In this document: positions 2,176 to 61,612 of the stretch, piece by piece
Position numbering within the stretch: position 1 is the first letter of the stretch
Layout: the number at the start of each line of letters is the position of its first letter
Notes under the pieces: generated by a model
Seen by the model: the letters and a program-made list of their open reading frames with translations, nothing else
The model's database searches: none
What the model was told of the DNA's origin: nothing
Program-made: the position numbers and the translations under genes
NCBI GenBank assembly: GCA_965218795.1
Contig: OZ244653.1
Coordinates: 4,608,001 to 4,672,000, forward strand
Direction: 5' to 3'
DNA: 64,000 bases
Source: a bacterium
GTDB taxonomy: Bacteria > UBA8248 > JACPRG01 > G963555815

Positions 2176-2691
2176 AAGGGCGATTTGGGGGACGAGATCT
2201 CGCTCCGCAATGTGCGCGTGAACGCCTGATCCTTCGCCCAAGATCCGACCGCCGCTTTCTTGCCTCAAACGCCTAATAATCGCGTAACAAGCGCCTTTTC
2301 CGGGACAAATTAAAGACATGAGGGGTTTGAACCGCCTTGGGGCCGGGATGGGCGGTCAGCGCTCCGCTGAGAAATACCGGACGGCCCACCGGAAAGACCC
2401 GAAAACCCGAATAAAATAACTGTAGATTATGACCGTGAAACGGTCGAAAAAGGCCCTTGCGACGCTCTTTTAATGGCGTTTCAAGGGCCTTTTCTTTCGG
2501 CAAAAAGTGGGAATTTCAGCACCCGAAAAGGGCGGTAAAAAACCCCTAAAAAGAGTCAGGGAATCCTCACATCTCACTTATGCTGGTGCTGTTCTTCTGG
2601 GGTGCGTTTTCCCGCCCATTCATCAGTAGTGGAGCTCATTCCAATCAAATTCCCACCATGCCAACCTACGGTTCAGCATCTCATTTTCTTC

Positions 2692-2958
2692 TTAAAGCCG
2701 CTTCAAAGTACGCCGATCAGATTCTGCTTTCTGTGGTCTTGGAAGGTCGGCAATTCTCCGTGGCCTTGTGCTGTCGAGCCAGTAGCTTGCCGATATTCCT
2801 TGGAGAGCATTTCTGAAGCGGCCAAATCTTTCCTCCTCCAACCTTTTAAGCATTCTGCGGGCACTGCTGCCTTCCGCCAACTCCCGTAGCTCAGCAACGT
2901 ACGCCTCCAAAGCCTCTCGCGCAATATTAGTTCCCGGAAGACTTCTTGCCGCGTACAT
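2692..2958 (-). CDS. Hypothetical small protein (prophage region)
   Basis: ATG at 2958 preceded by AAGGAG; 88 codons; no recognisable motif. Confidence 0.35.
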   Translation of the reverse strand: MYAARSLPGTNIAREALEAYVAELRELAEGSSARRMLKRLEEERFGRFRNALQGISASYWLDSTRPRRIADLPRPQKAESDRRTLKRL

Positions 2959-3004
2959 ACAGTTCACTCCTTCTGGTGCAAGCGCACCTGTATCCCAAAA
3001 AGTG

Positions 3005-3032
3005 TTGACATTGGAGCTTGAAGGAGTAAACT
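3005..3032 (+). promoter_or_regulatory. Putative sigma70 promoter
   Basis: TTGACA (3005-3010), 16 nt, TAAACT (3027-3032). Confidence 0.4.
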
Positions 3033-3065
3033 GAAAAGATTATATGGCTTTCAGTTACCCCTTGT

Positions 3066-3102
3066 AAAAGCTCCGGCTCCCTACCGGAGCTTTTGCCTTT
3101 TT
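3066..3102. terminator. Intrinsic terminator, potentially bidirectional
   Basis: AAAAGCTCCGG-ctcccta-CCGGAGCTTTT perfect stem followed by a T-rich tract. Confidence 0.7.
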
Positions 3103-3285
3103 AGCCCTTTTCCCATTTACAGGCAAGAGAAAATAGGCGGCGACGACATCAGCGCCGCTTCATTGAGGATGCGTCCATGGATTCGAAGGAACTGTAGTCA
3201 AGCGACTCGTGGAGCGACGTTACTGGGTGTACCGTTGCCAGAAGGGGTGTAGCGAAACCCACAAGAATTATAAGGGAGACCGACC

Positions 3286-3315
3286 TTGACGCCGGATTGC
3301 CAGCCGTCGTATATT
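3286..3315 (+). promoter_or_regulatory. Putative sigma70 promoter for structured RNA
   Basis: TTGACG (3286-3291), 18 nt, TATATT (3310-3315); predicted +1 at G3322. Confidence 0.55.
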
Positions 3316-3321
3316 CTTATT

Positions 3322-3389
3322 GGCGTCTGAGTCAGACGTGATTACTTGAACCTTCGGGTCAATGGGGACGTCACGCACCCCCGGGCGCC
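3322..3389 (+). ncRNA. Candidate ~68-nt structured ncRNA convergent on the MuF-nuclease gene
   Basis: Ends pair (GGCGUCUG/CGGGCGCC); nested CGUGAU/GUCACG stem; UUGAaCC-UUCG-GGUCAA hairpin with cUUCGg tetraloop; upstream promoter. Confidence 0.55.
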
Positions 3390-3395
3390 GCCCTT

Positions 3396-4593
3396 TTACT
3401 TCCCACCCAACTTCCGAAGCCTCCTCCTCGCGCTGAGAAGCCGTTTCTCATCTGTCAGGTGTTTCGTTCGTCATGTACGTCTCCTCCCCGTCCTTCGTGG
3501 TCTTGATCACCAGGCGCCAGAGCTCTCCGTCCTCCTCCAGAAAACCGATGGCCGACCGCGCCTTCTCGGCCGACCGAAACACCTCCCCTCGATCCAGCAC
3601 GCGCTGAACCCTCAGCCAGTCCTCCGGGCCGAAGTCCGCGAAGCGCGCGTGAGACCTCGCCGTCTCGCTCGATAGCCGCAGCGTCCTTGACCGCCCGCGG
3701 ATCGCGCCCAGAATCCTCTTGGGCACCACGGCCAACGGCCAGCTCCCGGCCTCCTTCCCGCCCAGAAAATCCGCAAGCCCCGGGTTGCCCGCGAAACTCC
3801 GGGCCGCGGCCCGGGCCAGATCCTCGGGCGCCGCGTCCATCTTCTCGATCGCCTGCTCCAGGGCCTCGCCGACCCTTCCCACACGGCCCACGTTGTGGTC
3901 CCATCCGGGATCGAGGCCCACGGGGATATGCCTCATTTCGCCGGTCCGCTTGTTCACCCATTCCCGGGTTTTGCCGGCGTTGCTCGGGACGTCCGTCACC
4001 TCGTAGCCGTACCGCTCCAGGTCGTCGTCGCCAAGCTGCTGGACGATGCACCGGCAGCCCCATCCGTTGGGCGGATAGTGGGTTTGCCAGAAGGGGTGAT
4101 CCACCGGCAGCACCGTCCCGTGCCAGCCCAGGTGCTCTTCCCGCGTCCGCTCGTCGGTCACGGCCACGTAGCGCAGATACGGAAGGTCCGCCTTGACGCG
4201 CTGGATCCGCTCCCACCGGCCCGCGCCGTAAGAGGCCCGCAGGTTGGCGTCGAAGATCGTCCGCAAACGGTGGGGGGAGCCGACTTGAACGATCCGGGTC
4301 TTTTTGGTCAGCGGGTCATATATCGGTTCACGGCCCCACCAGCCGCGCTTCACCAGCAACGGCTCGAGCTCGCTGCGGAAGGTATCAAGCGTGATCCCAT
4401 CGGATATGGCCCGGTCCACGGCCTTCCGGATGTCCGTGAGGATGTCCAGGTCCATGGCCTTGGCCACGGTGAAGGCCCGGGCGTGCAAGGCCGCGTCAGC
4501 GTCCTGCCAGGCGAACGTGATCTTGCGGCCCTTCTTGCGGAAGCGCCTCACCGCCTCAACGGGCGGGACGTTCAGGATTTCGGGGAGCGGCAT
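3396..4593 (-). CDS. Mu gp30/F-like (MuF) phage head morphogenesis protein with C-terminal PBECR2-like nuclease domain; frameshift near 3' end
   Basis: AFTVAKAMDLDIL, LRTIFDANL, HPFWQTHYPPNGWGCRC are MuF motifs. The C-terminal LRLSSET..H...WLRVQRVLDRG...VIKTTKDGEETY resembles PBECR2. The ORF stops at 3448 but a +1 frame continues to TAA at 3396. Confidence 0.85.
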
Positions 4594-4621
4594 GGGTCAA
4601 TCACCACATGGATAGGGATGA

Positions 4622-4713
4622 ACATGGATAGACAGGATAGACAGGATAGACAGGATGAAAATTACAAATTTCTGTTTTTCTTTTCCCATCCTGTGCATCC
4701 TGTGCATCCATGT
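4622..4713. repeat. REP-like inverted repeat built of 9-bp tandem units
   Basis: ACATGGATAG(ACAGGATAG)2 ACAGGATG, AT-rich spacer, then CATCCTGTG CATCCTGTG CATCCATGT. Confidence 0.75.
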
Positions 4714-4724
4714 CTGGTCTCCGG

Positions 4725-5546
4725 TCAGGGCTTCGCCGGGTCCCATACGATCGTCGCTATCTGCTCTTTGGTCAGCTTCGCCCGGTAGTGCTTCCGGTGG
4801 CGCTTGAGGTGAACAATTACCTTTCCGTTGATCTCAATCGGCGCGCTTTCCAGCACCGGATCGCCCCACACATGAAGCCAGCCCCACGGCGAAAGCATCA
4901 CAACCGGCTTACTACCGCCCTTGCGGTAAACAATCCCGTACTTGCTGGGCTGGCAATACACCGGTTTCCACCAGCACAGCCGCCTCTTTCGTGCAAATTC
5001 CACGGTCAGCGCGTAAAGAAGCGGTTCCTTTTCGGCTTCGGCCAGGCCGTCGTCTCCGGAGATCGCCGGTTTTCCCTCCGCGCCCTCAAGCGCCAGGTCG
5101 ATCATGTCGCCCACGGTTGTTTTGTAATACTGATTTCCGCCTTTTTTGTACCACCAGAACCGCAGGCTTCGGACCTTCGGCCCCGCCTTTCTGAGCCGGT
5201 CGCGCAGGGCGGCGGCCCCGTCGTGCTTGAGGCGCTTGCTCCACGCCTTCTTGGTCAACTCCCGGTTGAACTTTCCATTCGCCCCGAGGATAGGTATGGC
5301 GTCGGACAGGGCGGCGGAGTACAGGACGTTCCCGATCTTCCTGCAGTTCCCTCCGAAGCGGTCGAAGCGGTCATGGACCATCCACAGATCGCCGTCGGCA
5401 TTGTACTCGTACAAGTAGCCGCCGCCCGACAGGCTGGCATTCGGCTCGGGAGACCAGATCGGCAAATGGCCCTTGAACTGAAAGCCCCGGCTGAGCATGT
5501 TCCAGCGGAGGATCATATTAGAAACACCAAGTGTAGATTTTCCCAT
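4725..5546 (-). CDS. Hypothetical basic protein inserted between portal and MuF
   Basis: ATG at 5546 with GAGG RBS, 17 nt after the portal stop; 273 codons, K/R/W-rich; no motif recognised. Confidence 0.65.
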   Translation of the reverse strand: MGKSTLGVSNMILRWNMLSRGFQFKGHLPIWSPEPNASLSGGGYLYEYNADGDLWMVHDRFDRFGGNCRKIGNVLYSAALSDAIPILGANGKFNRELTKKAWSKRLKHDGAAALRDRLRKAGPKVRSLRFWWYKKGGNQYYKTTVGDMIDLALEGAEGKPAISGDDGLAEAEKEPLLYALTVEFARKRRLCWWKPVYCQPSKYGIVYRKGGSKPVVMLSPWGWLHVWGDPVLESAPIEINGKVIVHLKRHRKHYRAKLTKEQIATIVWDPAKP

Positions 5547-5563: not shown

Positions 5564-6520
5564 CTACGCTTCCCCGTCTGGATCGTCGGCGTTCTGTAGG
5601 CCAGCCCGGCCGGACAGCCAGGCGCTGAATGCGTTGGCCCGTACCCGCAGCGCCAGGGCTTCGTCGTCGAGCTGCTCCGCCAGGCCGCCGAAAGCCTCGT
5701 TGAAGTCCTCCAGGGTTTCGGCTTCGGCCGCCGCCGCAAGGATCGGCTCGATGATCGGGCCGGTCAGCTGCTCCCAATCGTTCGCCGCGTCGACCGCCGC
5801 GTCGCCAAGCGGATCGGCCGTTGTGTCGCCCTCGCGGGCCGCGCCCTGAAGGGCAGTACGCAGCGCCGGTTCTTGGTTCCCCGGCGCCGGTGGCGGATCC
5901 GGCGCCGGTTCCCATTCGCCGCCGTATACGGCCTCGACGTGCGCCTGCGTGGGCTTGAGGCCGGTCGTCTCGGAAATGATCCGCTCCCGTTCGGCCCGTT
6001 TGTCCAGGTCCTCGGGCGGTTCGGCGTCCCGCCGTATCCGGGGGATCGCCGCGCCGGGAAAATTCCACTCCGTCAGCCACCTTGAGATCGTGTGGTTCAA
6101 AGCGTCGTCCAGCATGTGGGCGTCCGCCGCGATCACCTCGTCCCGCACGTCCTTCTGGATCTCGGCCGTCCCCTTCCAGGGGCCTTGATCCGTGGTGGAG
6201 CTTTGGCCCAAAAGCGTCGTCGTAATGGCGCTGTCCAGGTACTTCACGAACACCTCGAAATCCGCGCCCGTCCTCCGGGCGGATTCCATAAGCTCGATGT
6301 CCTGCCCCTCCGGGAGCGCTACGCCGGAGCCCACCGAAAGGCCCTTGATCAGTTCCAAGAGCTTGTCAATCTCCTCCTGATTCGCGCCCTTGCGGTATGT
6401 GCCCTTGGGCGTGGGAGAACCGTACTTGTCAAGCGAAACCGCCCAAAACTTCAGGCCGTTCCGCTTTAGCCATACCGGCCAGTAGCACCAACGCGCCAGG
6501 CCGGGGCCGTGAGGGATGTC
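5564..6520 (-). pseudogene. Mu gp29-like (DUF935) portal protein, 5'-truncated
   Basis: The frame extends upstream of the tracked ORF: DIPHGPGLARWCYWPVWLKRNGLKFWAVSLDKYGSPTPKGTY...LLGQSST...WNFP. The N-terminal half is absent. Confidence 0.85.
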
Positions 6521-55417: not shown

Positions 55418-57113
55418 CCTGGATATCTCACAAAGAAAGAGAGCCAAGCCGGTTTTTTTCGGGTAAACTCTTTTTGATCAACGGGTTGCCCGAAGAAAGG
55501 AGACCGACTTGACTCGCACACAGAGTATCGCAGAACAGATGGAATTCCAAGGGTTGGGTTCTCGGCGTGTGATCGCCACTTCCAACGGCGGGGCGATCAC
55601 CTCTGATGCGGGCGGTCTTTTGCTACGCGACACCGAGGGGCGGGTGAAGCTGATCGCAGGCTTCGCGGCCTGTTTTGAGGACGGTCGGGACGCGAGGCGG
55701 GTGGAACATGAGTTGGGGGCGTTGTTGCGGCAGCGGGTGTACGCGCTGGCGCTTGGCTATGAGGACGTCAACGACCACGAGCGGCTTCGCTTTGACCCGA
55801 TGCTCCAGATCCTCTCGGGCAAGCTGGAGGCCACGCGGCGCAAGGGGGGTCCGGCCCTTGCGGGCAAGAGCACGCTGAACCGTTTGGAGCGTCTTGCGGG
55901 CGATGGCGATGAGCGCTACCACAAGATCGCCTACCGAGGCGAGGCGATCGACCGGCTGTTGGTGGACAACTTCCTTCGGTCGCAGAGGCGGGCGCCGGGT
56001 CGGATCGTTTTGGACATCGACGCCACCGACGACCCGGTGCACGGCTGTCAGAAGGGGCGTTTCTTCCACGGCTATCACGGTCATTACTGCCACCTTCCGC
56101 TTTACATCTTCTGCGGGGATTTCCTTTTGTGCGCTCGGCTTCGGCCCTCCAATATCGACGCCTCCTCGGGGGTGGTGGAAGAGTTGGAGCGGATCGTTGC
56201 CCAGATTCGGGCACGCTGGCCGCAGGTGTCGATCCTGCTTCGGGCGGATTCGGACTTCTCGCGCGAGTGGATCATGGCCTGGTGCGAGGCGCAGGGGGTG
56301 GATTACGTGTTCGGCCTGGCCAAGACCTCCCGGCTGCAGGAAGCGGTGAAGGACGAGCTGGCCGAAGCGAAGGCGCGTCATCAGAGCACGGGGAAGGGGG
56401 CGCGGTTATTCCGGTCGTTTCCTCACCGGACGCTTACATCCTGGAGCCGGGTGCGGCGGGTGGTCGCCAAGGCCGAGCACCTGGCCAAGGGCGCCAATCC
56501 GCGCTTCATCGTGACTTCGCTGGACGAGGAGGCGATCGACGCGAAGCCTCTGTACGAGCGCATCTACTGCGCCCGGGGGACGATGGAGAACCGGCTCAAG
56601 GAGCAGCAGCTCGACCTGTACGCGGACCGGACGTCGTGCACGCGGATGCGCTCCAATCAGTTGCGGCTCTACCTGTCGGCGGTGGCCTATGAACTGATGC
56701 ATGCGTTGCGTCGGCTAGGCCTTCGGGGGACGGCGTTTGCAAAGGCAACGTGTGGAACGGTGCGGACGCGGCTGCTGAAGATCGGGGCGCAGGTTCGGGT
56801 GAGCGTGCGGCGGGTGCACGTGGCCCTTGCGACGGGTTATCCGTACATGAATGTGTTCTTCCACGCCTGGCGGAACCTGCGCGCGGGGCCGGAGGGAGAG
56901 CCCGCCGTCTAAGACAGATTGCAAAATGAACGCGCAGGGAGTCGAGGCAAACGTGCGTGCGGAGCCGAGCCAAATCGGCCAAAAAGCCCCTCTCACGGGT
57001 CAACTCCAACCACCCACCGGCCCTGGCATCCACCGCAAAAGCGACAGACAGGAAAAAACACTCCAATTCACACCCGATAATCCATCCGCCGAGTGGGTGG
57101 TGAGAAATGCGGG
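55418..57113 (+). mobile_element. IS1380-family insertion sequence, copy 1 (1696 bp)
   Basis: IRL CCTGGATATCTCAC, IRR GTGAGAAATGCGGG. Confidence 0.94.
55509..56912 (+). CDS. IS1380-family transposase
   Basis: GGAITSDAG, GYEDVNDH..LR.DP, LDIDATDDPVHG.Q, LRADS, YCARGTMENRLKE. Confidence 0.96.
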   Translation: MTRTQSIAEQMEFQGLGSRRVIATSNGGAITSDAGGLLLRDTEGRVKLIAGFAACFEDGRDARRVEHELGALLRQRVYALALGYEDVNDHERLRFDPMLQILSGKLEATRRKGGPALAGKSTLNRLERLAGDGDERYHKIAYRGEAIDRLLVDNFLRSQRRAPGRIVLDIDATDDPVHGCQKGRFFHGYHGHYCHLPLYIFCGDFLLCARLRPSNIDASSGVVEELERIVAQIRARWPQVSILLRADSDFSREWIMAWCEAQGVDYVFGLAKTSRLQEAVKDELAEAKARHQSTGKGARLFRSFPHRTLTSWSRVRRVVAKAEHLAKGANPRFIVTSLDEEAIDAKPLYERIYCARGTMENRLKEQQLDLYADRTSCTRMRSNQLRLYLSAVAYELMHALRRLGLRGTAFAKATCGTVRTRLLKIGAQVRVSVRRVHVALATGYPYMNVFFHAWRNLRAGPEGEPAV

Positions 57114-59916: not shown

Positions 59917-61612
59917 CCTGGATATCTCACAAAGAAAGAGAGCCAAGCCGGTTTTTTTCGGGTAAACTCTTTTTGATCAACGGGTTGCCCGAAGAAAGGA
60001 GACCGACTTGACTCGCACACAGAGTATCGCAGAACAGATGGAATTCCAAGGGTTGGGTTCTCGGCGTGTGATCGCCACTTCCAACGGCGGGGCGATCACC
60101 TCTGATGCGGGCGGTCTTTTGCTACGCGACACCGAGGGGCGGGTGAAGCTGATCGCAGGCTTCGCGGCCTGTTTTGAGGACGGTCGGGACGCGAGGCGGG
60201 TGGAACATGAGTTGGGGGCGTTGTTGCGGCAGCGGGTGTACGCGCTGGCGCTTGGCTATGAGGACGTCAACGACCACGAGCGGCTTCGCTTTGACCCGAT
60301 GCTCCAGATCCTCTCGGGCAAGCTGGAGGCCACGCGGCGCAAGGGGGGTCCGGCCCTTGCGGGCAAGAGCACGCTGAACCGTTTGGAGCGTCTTGCGGGC
60401 GATGGCGATGAGCGCTACCACAAGATCGCCTACCGAGGCGAGGCGATCGACCGGCTGTTGGTGGACAACTTCCTTCGGTCGCAGAGGCGGGCGCCGGGTC
60501 GGATCGTTTTGGACATCGACGCCACCGACGACCCGGTGCACGGCTGTCAGAAGGGGCGTTTCTTCCACGGCTATCACGGTCATTACTGCCACCTTCCGCT
60601 TTACATCTTCTGCGGGGATTTCCTTTTGTGCGCTCGGCTTCGGCCCTCCAATATCGACGCCTCCTCGGGGGTGGTGGAAGAGTTGGAGCGGATCGTTGCC
60701 CAGATTCGGGCACGCTGGCCGCAGGTGTCGATCCTGCTTCGGGCGGATTCGGACTTCTCGCGCGAGTGGATCATGGCCTGGTGCGAGGCGCAGGGGGTGG
60801 ATTACGTGTTCGGCCTGGCCAAGACCTCCCGGCTGCAGGAAGCGGTGAAGGACGAGCTGGCCGAAGCGAAGGCGCGTCATCAGAGCACGGGGAAGGGGGC
60901 GCGGTTATTCCGGTCGTTTCCTCACCGGACGCTTACATCCTGGAGCCGGGTGCGGCGGGTGGTCGCCAAGGCCGAGCACCTGGCCAAGGGCGCCAATCCG
61001 CGCTTCATCGTGACTTCGCTGGACGAGGAGGCGATCGACGCGAAGCCTCTGTACGAGCGCATCTACTGCGCCCGGGGGACGATGGAGAACCGGCTCAAGG
61101 AGCAGCAGCTCGACCTGTACGCGGACCGGACGTCGTGCACGCGGATGCGCTCCAATCAGTTGCGGCTCTACCTGTCGGCGGTGGCCTATGAACTGATGCA
61201 TGCGTTGCGTCGGCTAGGCCTTCGGGGGACGGCGTTTGCAAAGGCAACGTGTGGAACGGTGCGGACGCGGCTGCTGAAGATCGGGGCGCAGGTTCGGGTG
61301 AGCGTGCGGCGGGTGCACGTGGCCCTTGCGACGGGTTATCCGTACATGAATGTGTTCTTCCACGCCTGGCGGAACCTGCGCGCGGGGCCGGAGGGAGAGC
61401 CCGCCGTCTAAGACAGATTGCAAAATGAACGCGCAGGGAGTCGAGGCAAACGTGCGTGCGGAGCCGAGCCAAATCGGCCAAAAAGCCCCTCTCACGGGTC
61501 AACTCCAACCACCCACCGGCCCTGGCATCCACCGCAAAAGCGACAGACAGGAAAAAACACTCCAATTCACACCCGATAATCCATCCGCCGAGTGGGTGGT
61601 GAGAAATGCGGG
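59917..61612 (+). mobile_element. IS1380-family insertion sequence, copy 2 (1696 bp)
   Basis: Same ends as copy 1; identical transposase translation. Confidence 0.94.
60008..61411 (+). CDS. IS1380-family transposase
   Basis: Translation identical to 55509-56912. Confidence 0.96.
   Translation: MTRTQSIAEQMEFQGLGSRRVIATSNGGAITSDAGGLLLRDTEGRVKLIAGFAACFEDGRDARRVEHELGALLRQRVYALALGYEDVNDHERLRFDPMLQILSGKLEATRRKGGPALAGKSTLNRLERLAGDGDERYHKIAYRGEAIDRLLVDNFLRSQRRAPGRIVLDIDATDDPVHGCQKGRFFHGYHGHYCHLPLYIFCGDFLLCARLRPSNIDASSGVVEELERIVAQIRARWPQVSILLRADSDFSREWIMAWCEAQGVDYVFGLAKTSRLQEAVKDELAEAKARHQSTGKGARLFRSFPHRTLTSWSRVRRVVAKAEHLAKGANPRFIVTSLDEEAIDAKPLYERIYCARGTMENRLKEQQLDLYADRTSCTRMRSNQLRLYLSAVAYELMHALRRLGLRGTAFAKATCGTVRTRLLKIGAQVRVSVRRVHVALATGYPYMNVFFHAWRNLRAGPEGEPAV

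Follow-up and report, generated by a model that had tools for sequence, protein, structure and literature searches.

A small structured RNA gene is predicted in a bacterium of the UBA8248 lineage, on contig OZ244653.1 of assembly GCA_965218795.1, where it lies directly beyond the end of a gene for a Mu gp30-like minor head protein (MuF) and on the opposite strand. The stretch of DNA that was analysed, called the window below, covers 64,000 nucleotides (positions 4,608,001 to 4,672,000 of the forward strand of the contig), and coordinates count from its first letter. The two genes are convergent, and the features on which the analysis turns are the following:

3286 to 3291, plus strand: -35 hexamer TTGACG, located by sequence inspection and a promoter scan
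3310 to 3315, plus strand: -10 hexamer TATATT, 6 nucleotides upstream of the RNA 5' end
3322 to 3389, plus strand: type A pseudoknotted small RNA of 68 nucleotides (GGCG...CGCC), assigned by the R1 covariance model and covariation
3322-3329 with 3382-3389, plus strand: RNA helix P1, the closing stem
3337-3341 with 3371-3375, plus strand: RNA helix P2
3346-3352 with 3357-3362, plus strand: RNA helix P3, with a UUCG loop at 3353-3356
3364-3367 (GGGG) with 3378-3381 (CCCC), plus strand: RNA helix P4
3390 to 3398, plus strand: tail GCCCUUUUA on the 3' side of P1, with a U-run at 3394-3397; its bases 3396-3398 are complementary to the stop codon that MuF originally had
3324 to 3338, plus strand: alternative palindrome CGTCTGA-G-TCAGACG, present in the window
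3396 to 3471, minus strand: frameshift zone and out-of-frame MuF C-terminus, recognized by comparison with a second MuF gene of the same genome (the paralog)
3448 to 4593, minus strand: MuF open reading frame (ORF), 381 amino acids, with Phage_Mu_F at residues 54-184 and a BECR-like domain from about residue 270

The RNA gene and its MuF neighbour

The N-terminal domain of the window MuF is Phage_Mu_F (PF04233; expectation value (E) 3.3e-22, residues 54-184), and residues 5-365 match the family phrog_220, 'minor head protein and DNA pilot' (E 4.6e-91). The paralog is intact, encodes 398 amino acids and is 93% identical to the window MuF over 374 amino acids; of the 7 genomes in the order, the source genome is the only one with the protein. 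Comparison of the two copies bears out the original prediction, made from the nucleotide sequence alone, that the window gene is frameshifted near its end: they differ in length by 1 nucleotide at about 3466-3468, the window protein ends ...ETYMTNETPDR*, and the shifted frame reads on as ...TKHLTDEKRLLSARRRLRKLGGK* to a TAA at 3396-3398, which aligns with the real stop codon of the paralog. The window protein lacks the last strand and the basic tail of its C-terminal domain, the T-K-H of the last strand being lost by the frameshift. Positions 3250-3650 are identical in contigs of three runs of one study, which possibly share their source with the window DNA and thus give the frameshift only weak independent support. 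A run from a second study yielded three short diverged pieces of about 3468-3650 (9, 11 and 5 differences; 4 gaps); the RNA and the frameshift site lie outside their span.

The predicted promoter of the RNA is sigma70-like, with an 18-nucleotide spacer and 10 of 12 consensus positions matched; a scan of 2500-5200 returned 4 promoter-like sites, against 0.8 +/- 1.1 in shuffled sequence. Because the 3' strand of P2 lies within the loop of P4, the proposed fold is an H-type pseudoknot closed by P1, and its 3' end falls 6 nucleotides short of the TTA at 3396-3398, that is, of the stop codon with which the out-of-frame continuation of MuF ends on the minus strand. Folded as a single sequence, the RNA does no better than chance: the minimum free energy is -24.1 kcal/mol, whereas shuffled versions average -22.7 +/- 3.5 (z -0.42), and 60 of the 200 shuffles do equally well. 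The minimum-energy fold is partly built on the palindrome at 3324-3338, which had been proposed as a switch or operator. The palindrome does exist in the window, but it is disrupted in the paralog (CGCCCGAGTCAGACG) and was not found in other type A members, so it is probably incidental and the regulatory role proposed for it finds no support in conservation.

In the interval 2967-3448 there is no ORF of at least 40 amino acids except one at 3346-3675 on the plus strand, antisense to MuF. This ORF and similar ones elsewhere on the RNA strand are taken to be artefacts of high GC content, because their starts are inconsistent relative to the RNA from locus to locus. No co-directional ORF of at least 40 amino acids follows the MuF stop codon, as had been predicted, and the RNA gene fills the slot in which a small immunity ORF would be expected. 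None of the covariance models of Rfam 15 matches at 3322-3389 (E <= 10) or at the RNA sites of 25 related loci (E <= 1), tRNA models included; the check for novelty that the original prediction had proposed thus points to a new RNA. It is comparative evidence, and not single-sequence folding, that establishes the 3322-3389 element as real.

Conservation of the fold and the promoter

MuF loci were gathered from genome and metagenome collections, and a similar element occupies the same place, as a reverse complement after the MuF stop codon, in many distant loci of the Alphaproteobacteria, the Nitrospirales and others. A covariance model (R1) was built from 4 distant alphaproteobacterial loci with the window left out. 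It matches the window at exactly 3322-3389 on the plus strand, with E 7.4e-6 in a scan of 85 sources (520,180 bases) and 1.6e-6 in another scan; the former also returned the paralog (E 3e-6), locus L010 (E 7e-8) and otherwise only four weak matches with E 1.2-9.6. Among 80 metagenome loci R1 found five more instances (E 8e-14 to 0.021), none of them on the MuF strand, and with filters off its two best matches in 47 kb were in locus L068 (E 0.0022) and in Ochrobactrum phage POA1180 (E 0.0043). R1 matches once in the window and once at the paralog, the RNA unit not being repeated nearby. In POA1180 the type A-like RNA (L187:1856-1923, minus strand) lies in an unannotated gap of 309 nucleotides between gp04 and gp05, with a promoter-like site TTGCCT-17-CATATT.

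In an alignment of 12 type A sequences, 97.0% of 267 pair cells form, compared with 38-48% when partners are slid by 1-3 columns; both sides change in 18 of 24 pairs, and none of 500 shuffles attains any of the five measures used. The alignment was fitted to P1-P3, so the pairing score favours these three helices. P4 was left out of the model, and it is nevertheless 96.7% paired, with covariation in 3 of its 5 pairs, one of which is seen as AU, CG, GC and UA. The differences between the window and its paralog are compensatory too: the hairpin ACC-UUCG-GGU of the window is GGC-UUCG-GCC in the paralog, CGUG/CACG is CGUA/UACG, and two G-U pairs of the closing stem are C-G pairs. Pairing reaches 97.0% on the given strand versus 91.0% on the opposite one (20 cells are G-U), and UUCG, GCAA and GAAA loops appear on the given strand only.

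The promoter is conserved as well. Among 23 RNA instances, 14 have a site scoring at least 8/12 with a -10 hexamer that ends 2-12 nucleotides before P1, compared with 1.3% of 4,600 positions picked at random from these loci, and some of the low-scoring instances still carry TTGNNN-17-TANNNN. A TTGNNN hexamer stands at an equal distance in most related loci and in the paralog, whose promoter, TTGACC-17-TAAATT, keeps the hexamers while its spacer has diverged. This conservation puts the start of the RNA on G3322 or on a neighbouring base. Roughly half of the instances seen, the window among them, have a U-run behind P1, which makes termination directly after P1 plausible or likely in some loci, and not general. 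Most of what had been read from the window alone is upheld: the sigma70-like promoter TTGACG-18-TATATT, a start on or beside G3322, a 68-nucleotide fold with the P4 pseudoknot, and an RNA end 6 nucleotides from the restored MuF stop codon.

Two other architectures were recognized in the same slot. Type B RNAs, described by a second model (R2), measure 88-111 nucleotides; R2 rests on six seeds and found six further matches (E 1e-15 to 1.6e-6), one of which duplicates a seed in sequence. Their alignment forms 98.0% of 294 pair cells versus 40-51% when slid, and a loop-loop pseudoknot outside the model is 100% paired, with covariation in 3 of 5 pairs and a switch from CUCCC/GGGAG to CUGGC/GCCAG. 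A candidate type C lies directly after the MuF stop codon, on the opposite strand, in five loci (L085, L086, L087, L100 and L130); it has an invariant UGAUGAG, and RNAalifold gives 23 pairs, 17 of them with compensatory changes, so that a third architecture probably occupies the slot. The UGAUGAG motif recalls the core of the hammerhead ribozyme, but no Rfam ribozyme model matched and this identification was rejected. Taken together, the covariation supports well a new RNA family of two to three classes.

Association of the RNA with MuF's C-terminal domain

The C-terminus of MuF is a soluble domain of about 130 amino acids. Its AlphaFold2 (AF2) model, made from a 32-sequence alignment, has a predicted local distance difference test score (pLDDT) of 93.5 and a predicted template modelling score (pTM) of 0.84, and consists of helices followed by a four-strand sheet at residues 69-111. 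An exhaustive structural search ranked first the CdiA-CT of E. coli NC101 (Z 6.9, root-mean-square deviation 3.2, 84 residues aligned), and its further matches include a Salmonella toxin-antitoxin (TA) toxin (7vd7, Z 5.9), BrnT (Z 5.7, with 76 of 77 BrnT residues aligned) and colicin D (Z 4.8); 17 of the top 20 rows are toxins of RelE/ParE, colicin D or CdiA-CT type. Since all of these Z values are below 8, a range in which a common arrangement of elements may explain a match, the domain is consistent with a BECR/RelE-like fold, as the original prediction had proposed, and the search is not proof of it. By sequence the domain is hard to place: Pfam recognizes only Phage_Mu_F in the window MuF and the intact paralog, the C-terminal 112 amino acids alone match 0 families at E <= 10, and a sequence-profile search of the PDB gave chance-level rows only (E >= 0.024). 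The domain family itself is large, with 1,763 cluster representatives at E <= 0.001, and its consensus combines KQ...H, in the first helix, with a T/S-x-H/R that belongs to the last strand. The accessible text of Iyer et al. (2017, PMC5512222) assigns the C-terminal part of Mu gp30 and of orthologous proteins ('MuF-C') to a phage-BECR (PBECR) clade and predicts that the Mu domain is inactive and probably RNA-binding, and that the orthologs are likely ribonucleases (RNases). In 50,697 phage records, tblastn found no match to the paralog domain, and matches in 2 records to the domain of locus L060 and in 5 to that of L100; a profile search with a 6-sequence domain alignment found 3 viral loci and no confirmed metagenome locus.

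A hidden Markov model of the last 130 residues, run on the MuF loci, detected the domain in 38 of 163, with one further locus borderline. An RNA, defined as a model match at E <= 0.05 downstream of MuF on the opposite strand, is present at 23 of these 38 loci (10 of the 23 being seeds) and at none of the 125 MuF loci that end otherwise or are short; related loci are not independent, so these counts overstate the statistics of the association. One domain locus ends too early to judge, which leaves 37 assessable, and at least 7 further domain loci, namely L031, L157 and the five of type C, carry an element that was recognized on visual inspection. The pairing of RNA and domain spans very distant hosts with domain identities of 18-46%, and the architecture of the RNA varies along with the domain subfamily. 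Whole-genome scans agree: in five genomes R1 gave 26 matches (6, 2, 4, 2 and 12), 25 of which abut a domain ORF, the exception (L199) being an orphan with a degenerate P4, and in five genomes R2 gave one match each, all 5 adjoining a domain ORF. Thus the RNA tracks this domain and not MuF genes in general, and the covarying structure and antisense promoter that had been predicted downstream of homologs are found, tied to the loci that bear the domain. Units of MuF and RNA can be multi-copy, with 12 R1 matches in genome G011 (L075), 6 in G007 (L006) and 4 in G009 (L010).

The RNA lies on the strand opposite MuF, usually 0-15 nucleotides from the MuF stop codon; in L110 it overlaps the MuF ORF by 18 nucleotides. 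Type A RNAs that still score highly also stand beside frameshifted or truncated MuF genes, in L172, L173, L176 and L178 as in the window, where, despite the truncated MuF domain, promoter and fold of the RNA gene are preserved and its differences from the paralog include compensatory ones; assembly errors could explain some of the broken MuF copies. Three domain loci have a small acidic co-directional ORF in the slot and no RNA, namely L023 and L024 (72 amino acids; L023:3601-3819, plus strand) and L018 (113 amino acids; 3859-4200, plus strand). The domains of L018 and L031 are 81% identical, and the RNA candidate of L031 is weak (fold z -1.53, R2 E 0.16), so the contrast between an RNA in one and a small ORF in the other is not used as evidence. 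Alteromonadaceae phage B23 was considered for the 274-nucleotide gap that follows its F gene, and was rejected on finding neither a model match nor, by eye, a convincing fold.

Upstream of MuF, the window contains two further genes of the prophage remnant:

4728 to 5546, minus strand: ORF of about 270 amino acids of no known family, between portal and MuF, 77% identical to the copy beside the paralog
5573 to 6520, minus strand: Mu-type portal gene without its first 104 codons, at the edge of the prophage remnant

Neither Pfam nor the 163 other MuF loci yielded a match to the 270-amino-acid ORF. The window remnant thus consists of the truncated portal gene, this ORF, the frameshifted MuF gene and the RNA, with host genes (a GntR/FCD regulator and others) from 6805; the paralog remnant has a portal gene, its copy of the 270-amino-acid ORF, MuF and the RNA, between transporter/cyclophilin and DUF6731/FMN-reductase genes. 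By gene content, then, both RNA copies of this genome lie in three-gene prophage remnants. Fuller head modules elsewhere place the RNA between MuF and a head maturation protease that is followed by the major head protein (L060, from Bilophila wadsworthia ATCC 49260, L054 and L077); because the genes after the RNA are co-directional with MuF, the RNA is antisense between genes F and I of a Mu-type head module. A portal gene precedes MuF in 108 loci, and in L006 it is split by about 1.3 kb of inserted DNA (31-510 and 1808-2467).

Several repeats were noted in the window. Between the 270-amino-acid ORF and the MuF start, 4606-4713 holds three 9-nucleotide units GGATAGACA and two inverted ones CATCCTGTG, which form an inverted repeat of 26 nucleotides, 85% complementary, with arms 40 nucleotides apart; the version beside the paralog is shorter, and Rfam returned weak miRNA-like rows for this segment. 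The stretch 2098-2553 is a multi-copy repeat with at least 15 other sites in the genome (69-88% identity), one of them about 2 kb from the paralog RNA, and its inner ORFs have no Pfam or PHROG match. Further away, 55509-56912 and 60008-61411, 4.5 kb apart, contain ORFs of 467, 252, 151 and 187 amino acids in the same arrangement and are probably a duplicated element.

Possible roles of the RNA

The interpretation that we favour, tentatively and at somewhat less than an even chance, is that the window RNA represents an undescribed pseudoknotted family and is the dedicated partner of the BECR-like MuF-C domain, which it would neutralise as an antidote. Host RNA polymerase would make the RNA independently of the phage late operon; the putative RNase domain would travel in the virion; and the RNA, most likely by binding the domain directly in its folded form, would neutralise it and so protect the lysogen or the producing cell, replacing the small immunity protein of other MuF toxins. 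An antidote is favoured because those other toxins have a small presumed immunity ORF as their next gene; in the accessible text of Jamet et al. (2017, PMC5576092) a small ORF follows 89.4% of 191 MuF toxin genes. It fits, moreover, because the RNA takes that very slot, in which L023, L024 and L018 have their acidic ORFs without an RNA, and because, in the manner of orphan immunity genes, the RNA survives next to decayed MuF genes and there undergoes compensatory change. A wider proposal, possible and rather more doubtful, is an RNA immunity of Mu-like temperate phages against a virion-delivered nuclease, in which a constitutive RNA, in place of an immunity protein, binds and blocks the domain, at least three RNA architectures have diversified with the domain subfamilies, and orphan immunity persists beside decayed MuF genes.

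A number of observations weigh against an antidote. The label PBECR2, which the original prediction had attached to the domain, could not be sustained: that Pfam family matches neither the paralog, nor the C-terminal 112 amino acids, nor any of 44 homologs, and PBECR1 matches 1 of the 44 (E 0.0057). A Foldseek search of the PDB returned nothing at E <= 0.001, and the structural matches that were obtained all fall in the low range of Z described above. In the window and the paralog the helix reads SH.R.F, with F at the histidine position and another H four residues earlier; with the canonical helix histidine replaced, the domain in this genome may be non-catalytic, and both copies in this genome may be functionless relics. 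The RNA was not seen in 6 of the 37 assessable domain loci (L005, L008, L018, L023, L024 and L079), and the association counts are inflated by shared descent as noted. Another gene separates MuF from the RNA in L088 (methylase-like) and in L096 (a small ORF). Phage Mu itself has MuF-C and has no room for the RNA, its G gene overlapping the end of F, and no model matches there. Finally, a convergent layout that abuts the stop codon is what is expected of a cis-antisense regulator, and since about half of the instances have no U-run, their transcripts may run on antisense into MuF.

These last points belong to the rather unlikely alternative that the RNA is a cis-antisense regulator resembling lambda OOP, RatA or SR4, which would pair with the 3' end of the MuF or late messenger RNA and, through RNase III cleavage or a block to read-through into the protease and capsid genes, silence late or toxin expression in lysogens, its fold serving stability or fast pairing. 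The convergent orientation, the RNA's own promoter and an RNA 3' end that lies 0-15 nucleotides from the MuF stop codon or overlaps it all suit such a regulator, and the layout agrees with antisense action about as well as with protein binding of the type III kind; a terminator on the sense strand would not fit in ahead of the RNA, and the late transcript must therefore contain its complement; where the U-run is missing the RNA may extend into the part of MuF that encodes the domain; and the junction of MuF with the head protease, where the RNA lies, coincides in phage Mu with the limit of an operon. Complementarity comes free in this arrangement, however, and antisense regulation leaves unexplained why a four-helix pseudoknot is conserved by compensatory changes, why three distinct architectures occupy one slot, and why the RNA is specific to the domain, being absent from the 125 MuF loci with other ends; nor does it suit L088 and L096 with their intervening genes. 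The strict association and the way in which architecture follows domain subfamily would be accounted for if the RNA were a positive partner of MuF-C, that is, a cofactor, cargo or substrate, for example one packaged together with MuF and delivered along with the DNA, or a decoy or sensor cleaved by the incoming nuclease. This we consider unlikely. An RNA-binding role is predicted for inactive MuF-C in the accessible text of Iyer et al. (2017, PMC5512222), and the canonical helix histidine is missing from the domains of the window and the paralog; the RNA is moreover the size of a tRNA, with a closing stem of 7-8 base pairs, and it is a tRNase that the domain model matches best in structure. 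Against this, the simpler source of a virion cofactor would be the late operon itself, on its own strand, whereas transcription of the RNA is predicted to start from a housekeeping-type promoter on the opposite one; remnants unable to make virions retain the RNA next to a broken MuF gene; and no tRNA or other Rfam model matches it.

An own promoter and a possible terminator within a late operon are also the typical layout of a 'moron', and shared descent of the loci could partly produce the association; the gene would then encode an independent small RNA that acts in trans, or serve as an insulator of transcription, and would travel with Mu-like head modules without a tie to MuF-C. We regard this as improbable, considering that the pairing persists between very distant hosts in spite of domain identities of 18-46%, that 25 of the 26 genome-wide R1 matches abut the domain, and that MuF proteins with close N-terminal domains and other C-termini never carry the RNA (0 of 125). 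A functionless chance hairpin beside a chance promoter, to which the single-sequence fold z of -0.42 would lend itself, is extremely improbable given that an independent model matches at the exact coordinates and that covariation, promoter conservation and recurrence in other loci all point the other way.

Type III TA systems (ToxIN, CptIN and TenpIN; also AvcID) pair a toxin, usually an endoribonuclease, with an adjacent folded and often pseudoknotted non-coding RNA that keeps it in check. The window locus resembles them in idea only: it has a single RNA unit and not a tandem repeat array for the toxin to process; the RNA is downstream and convergent with its own promoter instead of upstream in the toxin transcript; the modelled domain resembles BECR/RelE toxins (CdiA-CT, BrnT, colicin D) and not those of the ToxN, CptN or TenpN kind; and the candidate toxin is a domain of a virion protein, whose inhibition by the RNA is a proposal. 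Lambda OOP, RatA/txpA and SR4/bsrG are small constitutive RNAs that are convergent with a prophage gene and located at or overlapping its 3' end. The window RNA is likewise convergent and abuts the MuF stop codon, but it barely overlaps the ORF and its pseudoknot is under strong structural selection, and its partner, unlike those of OOP and of type I systems, is a virion protein of 381 or 398 amino acids with a soluble RNase-like domain and not a small membrane or hydrophobic peptide. The Mu-gpT-DE motif is a structured RNA tied to the gpT head gene of Mu-like prophages; that gene is a different one, and no Rfam family, Mu-gpT-DE included if it is in Rfam 15, matched the RNA sites.

On the protein side the resemblance is closer. 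As in the MuF polymorphic toxins described in the accessible text of Jamet et al. (2017, PMC5576092), an N-terminal Phage_Mu_F head domain is joined to a variable C-terminal domain, here a putative effector, the gene is portal-adjacent in what was probably a temperate Mu/SPP1-type head module, and a dedicated small gene comes directly after it; unlike in those toxins, the small gene is not a co-directional protein ORF but encodes a structured RNA, is read from the opposite strand and has a promoter to itself, and the window MuF is a frameshifted remnant. The domain shares with PBECR/MuF-C, as covered in the accessible parts of Iyer et al. (2017, PMC5512222) and of the preprint 10.64898/2026.08.28.747851, its position at the C-terminus of Mu gp30-type proteins and a BECR-like model, and differs from it in having no Pfam PBECR2 match and, in the window and paralog, no canonical helix histidine. 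Those accessible parts contain no mention that we found of an RNA partner of PBECR or BECR domains, and the phrase 'RNA antitoxin' has 0 occurrences in the preprint. No description of the RNA was found in the literature, in a search that left aside the supplements of Iyer et al. (2017) and Jamet et al. (2017), which possibly list neighbourhoods.

Whatever its function, the RNA constitutes a new family with a defined promoter and protein context, and its occurrence in the cultured phage POA1180 makes it directly testable. If it is an antidote, no RNA antidote would precede it for a toxin of the BECR/RelE fold or for a polymorphic toxin. If the RNA neutralises or serves MuF-C, it would give the first handle on a domain of the classical phage Mu head protein family whose role is so far only predicted, the control of toxins by RNA would reach past the three ToxN-like type III families into the large BECR/RelE fold, and the immunity slot of a polymorphic toxin would be shown to be able to hold an RNA gene. 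Other apparently 'immunity-less' toxins may in that case have one as well, since gene callers miss RNA genes.

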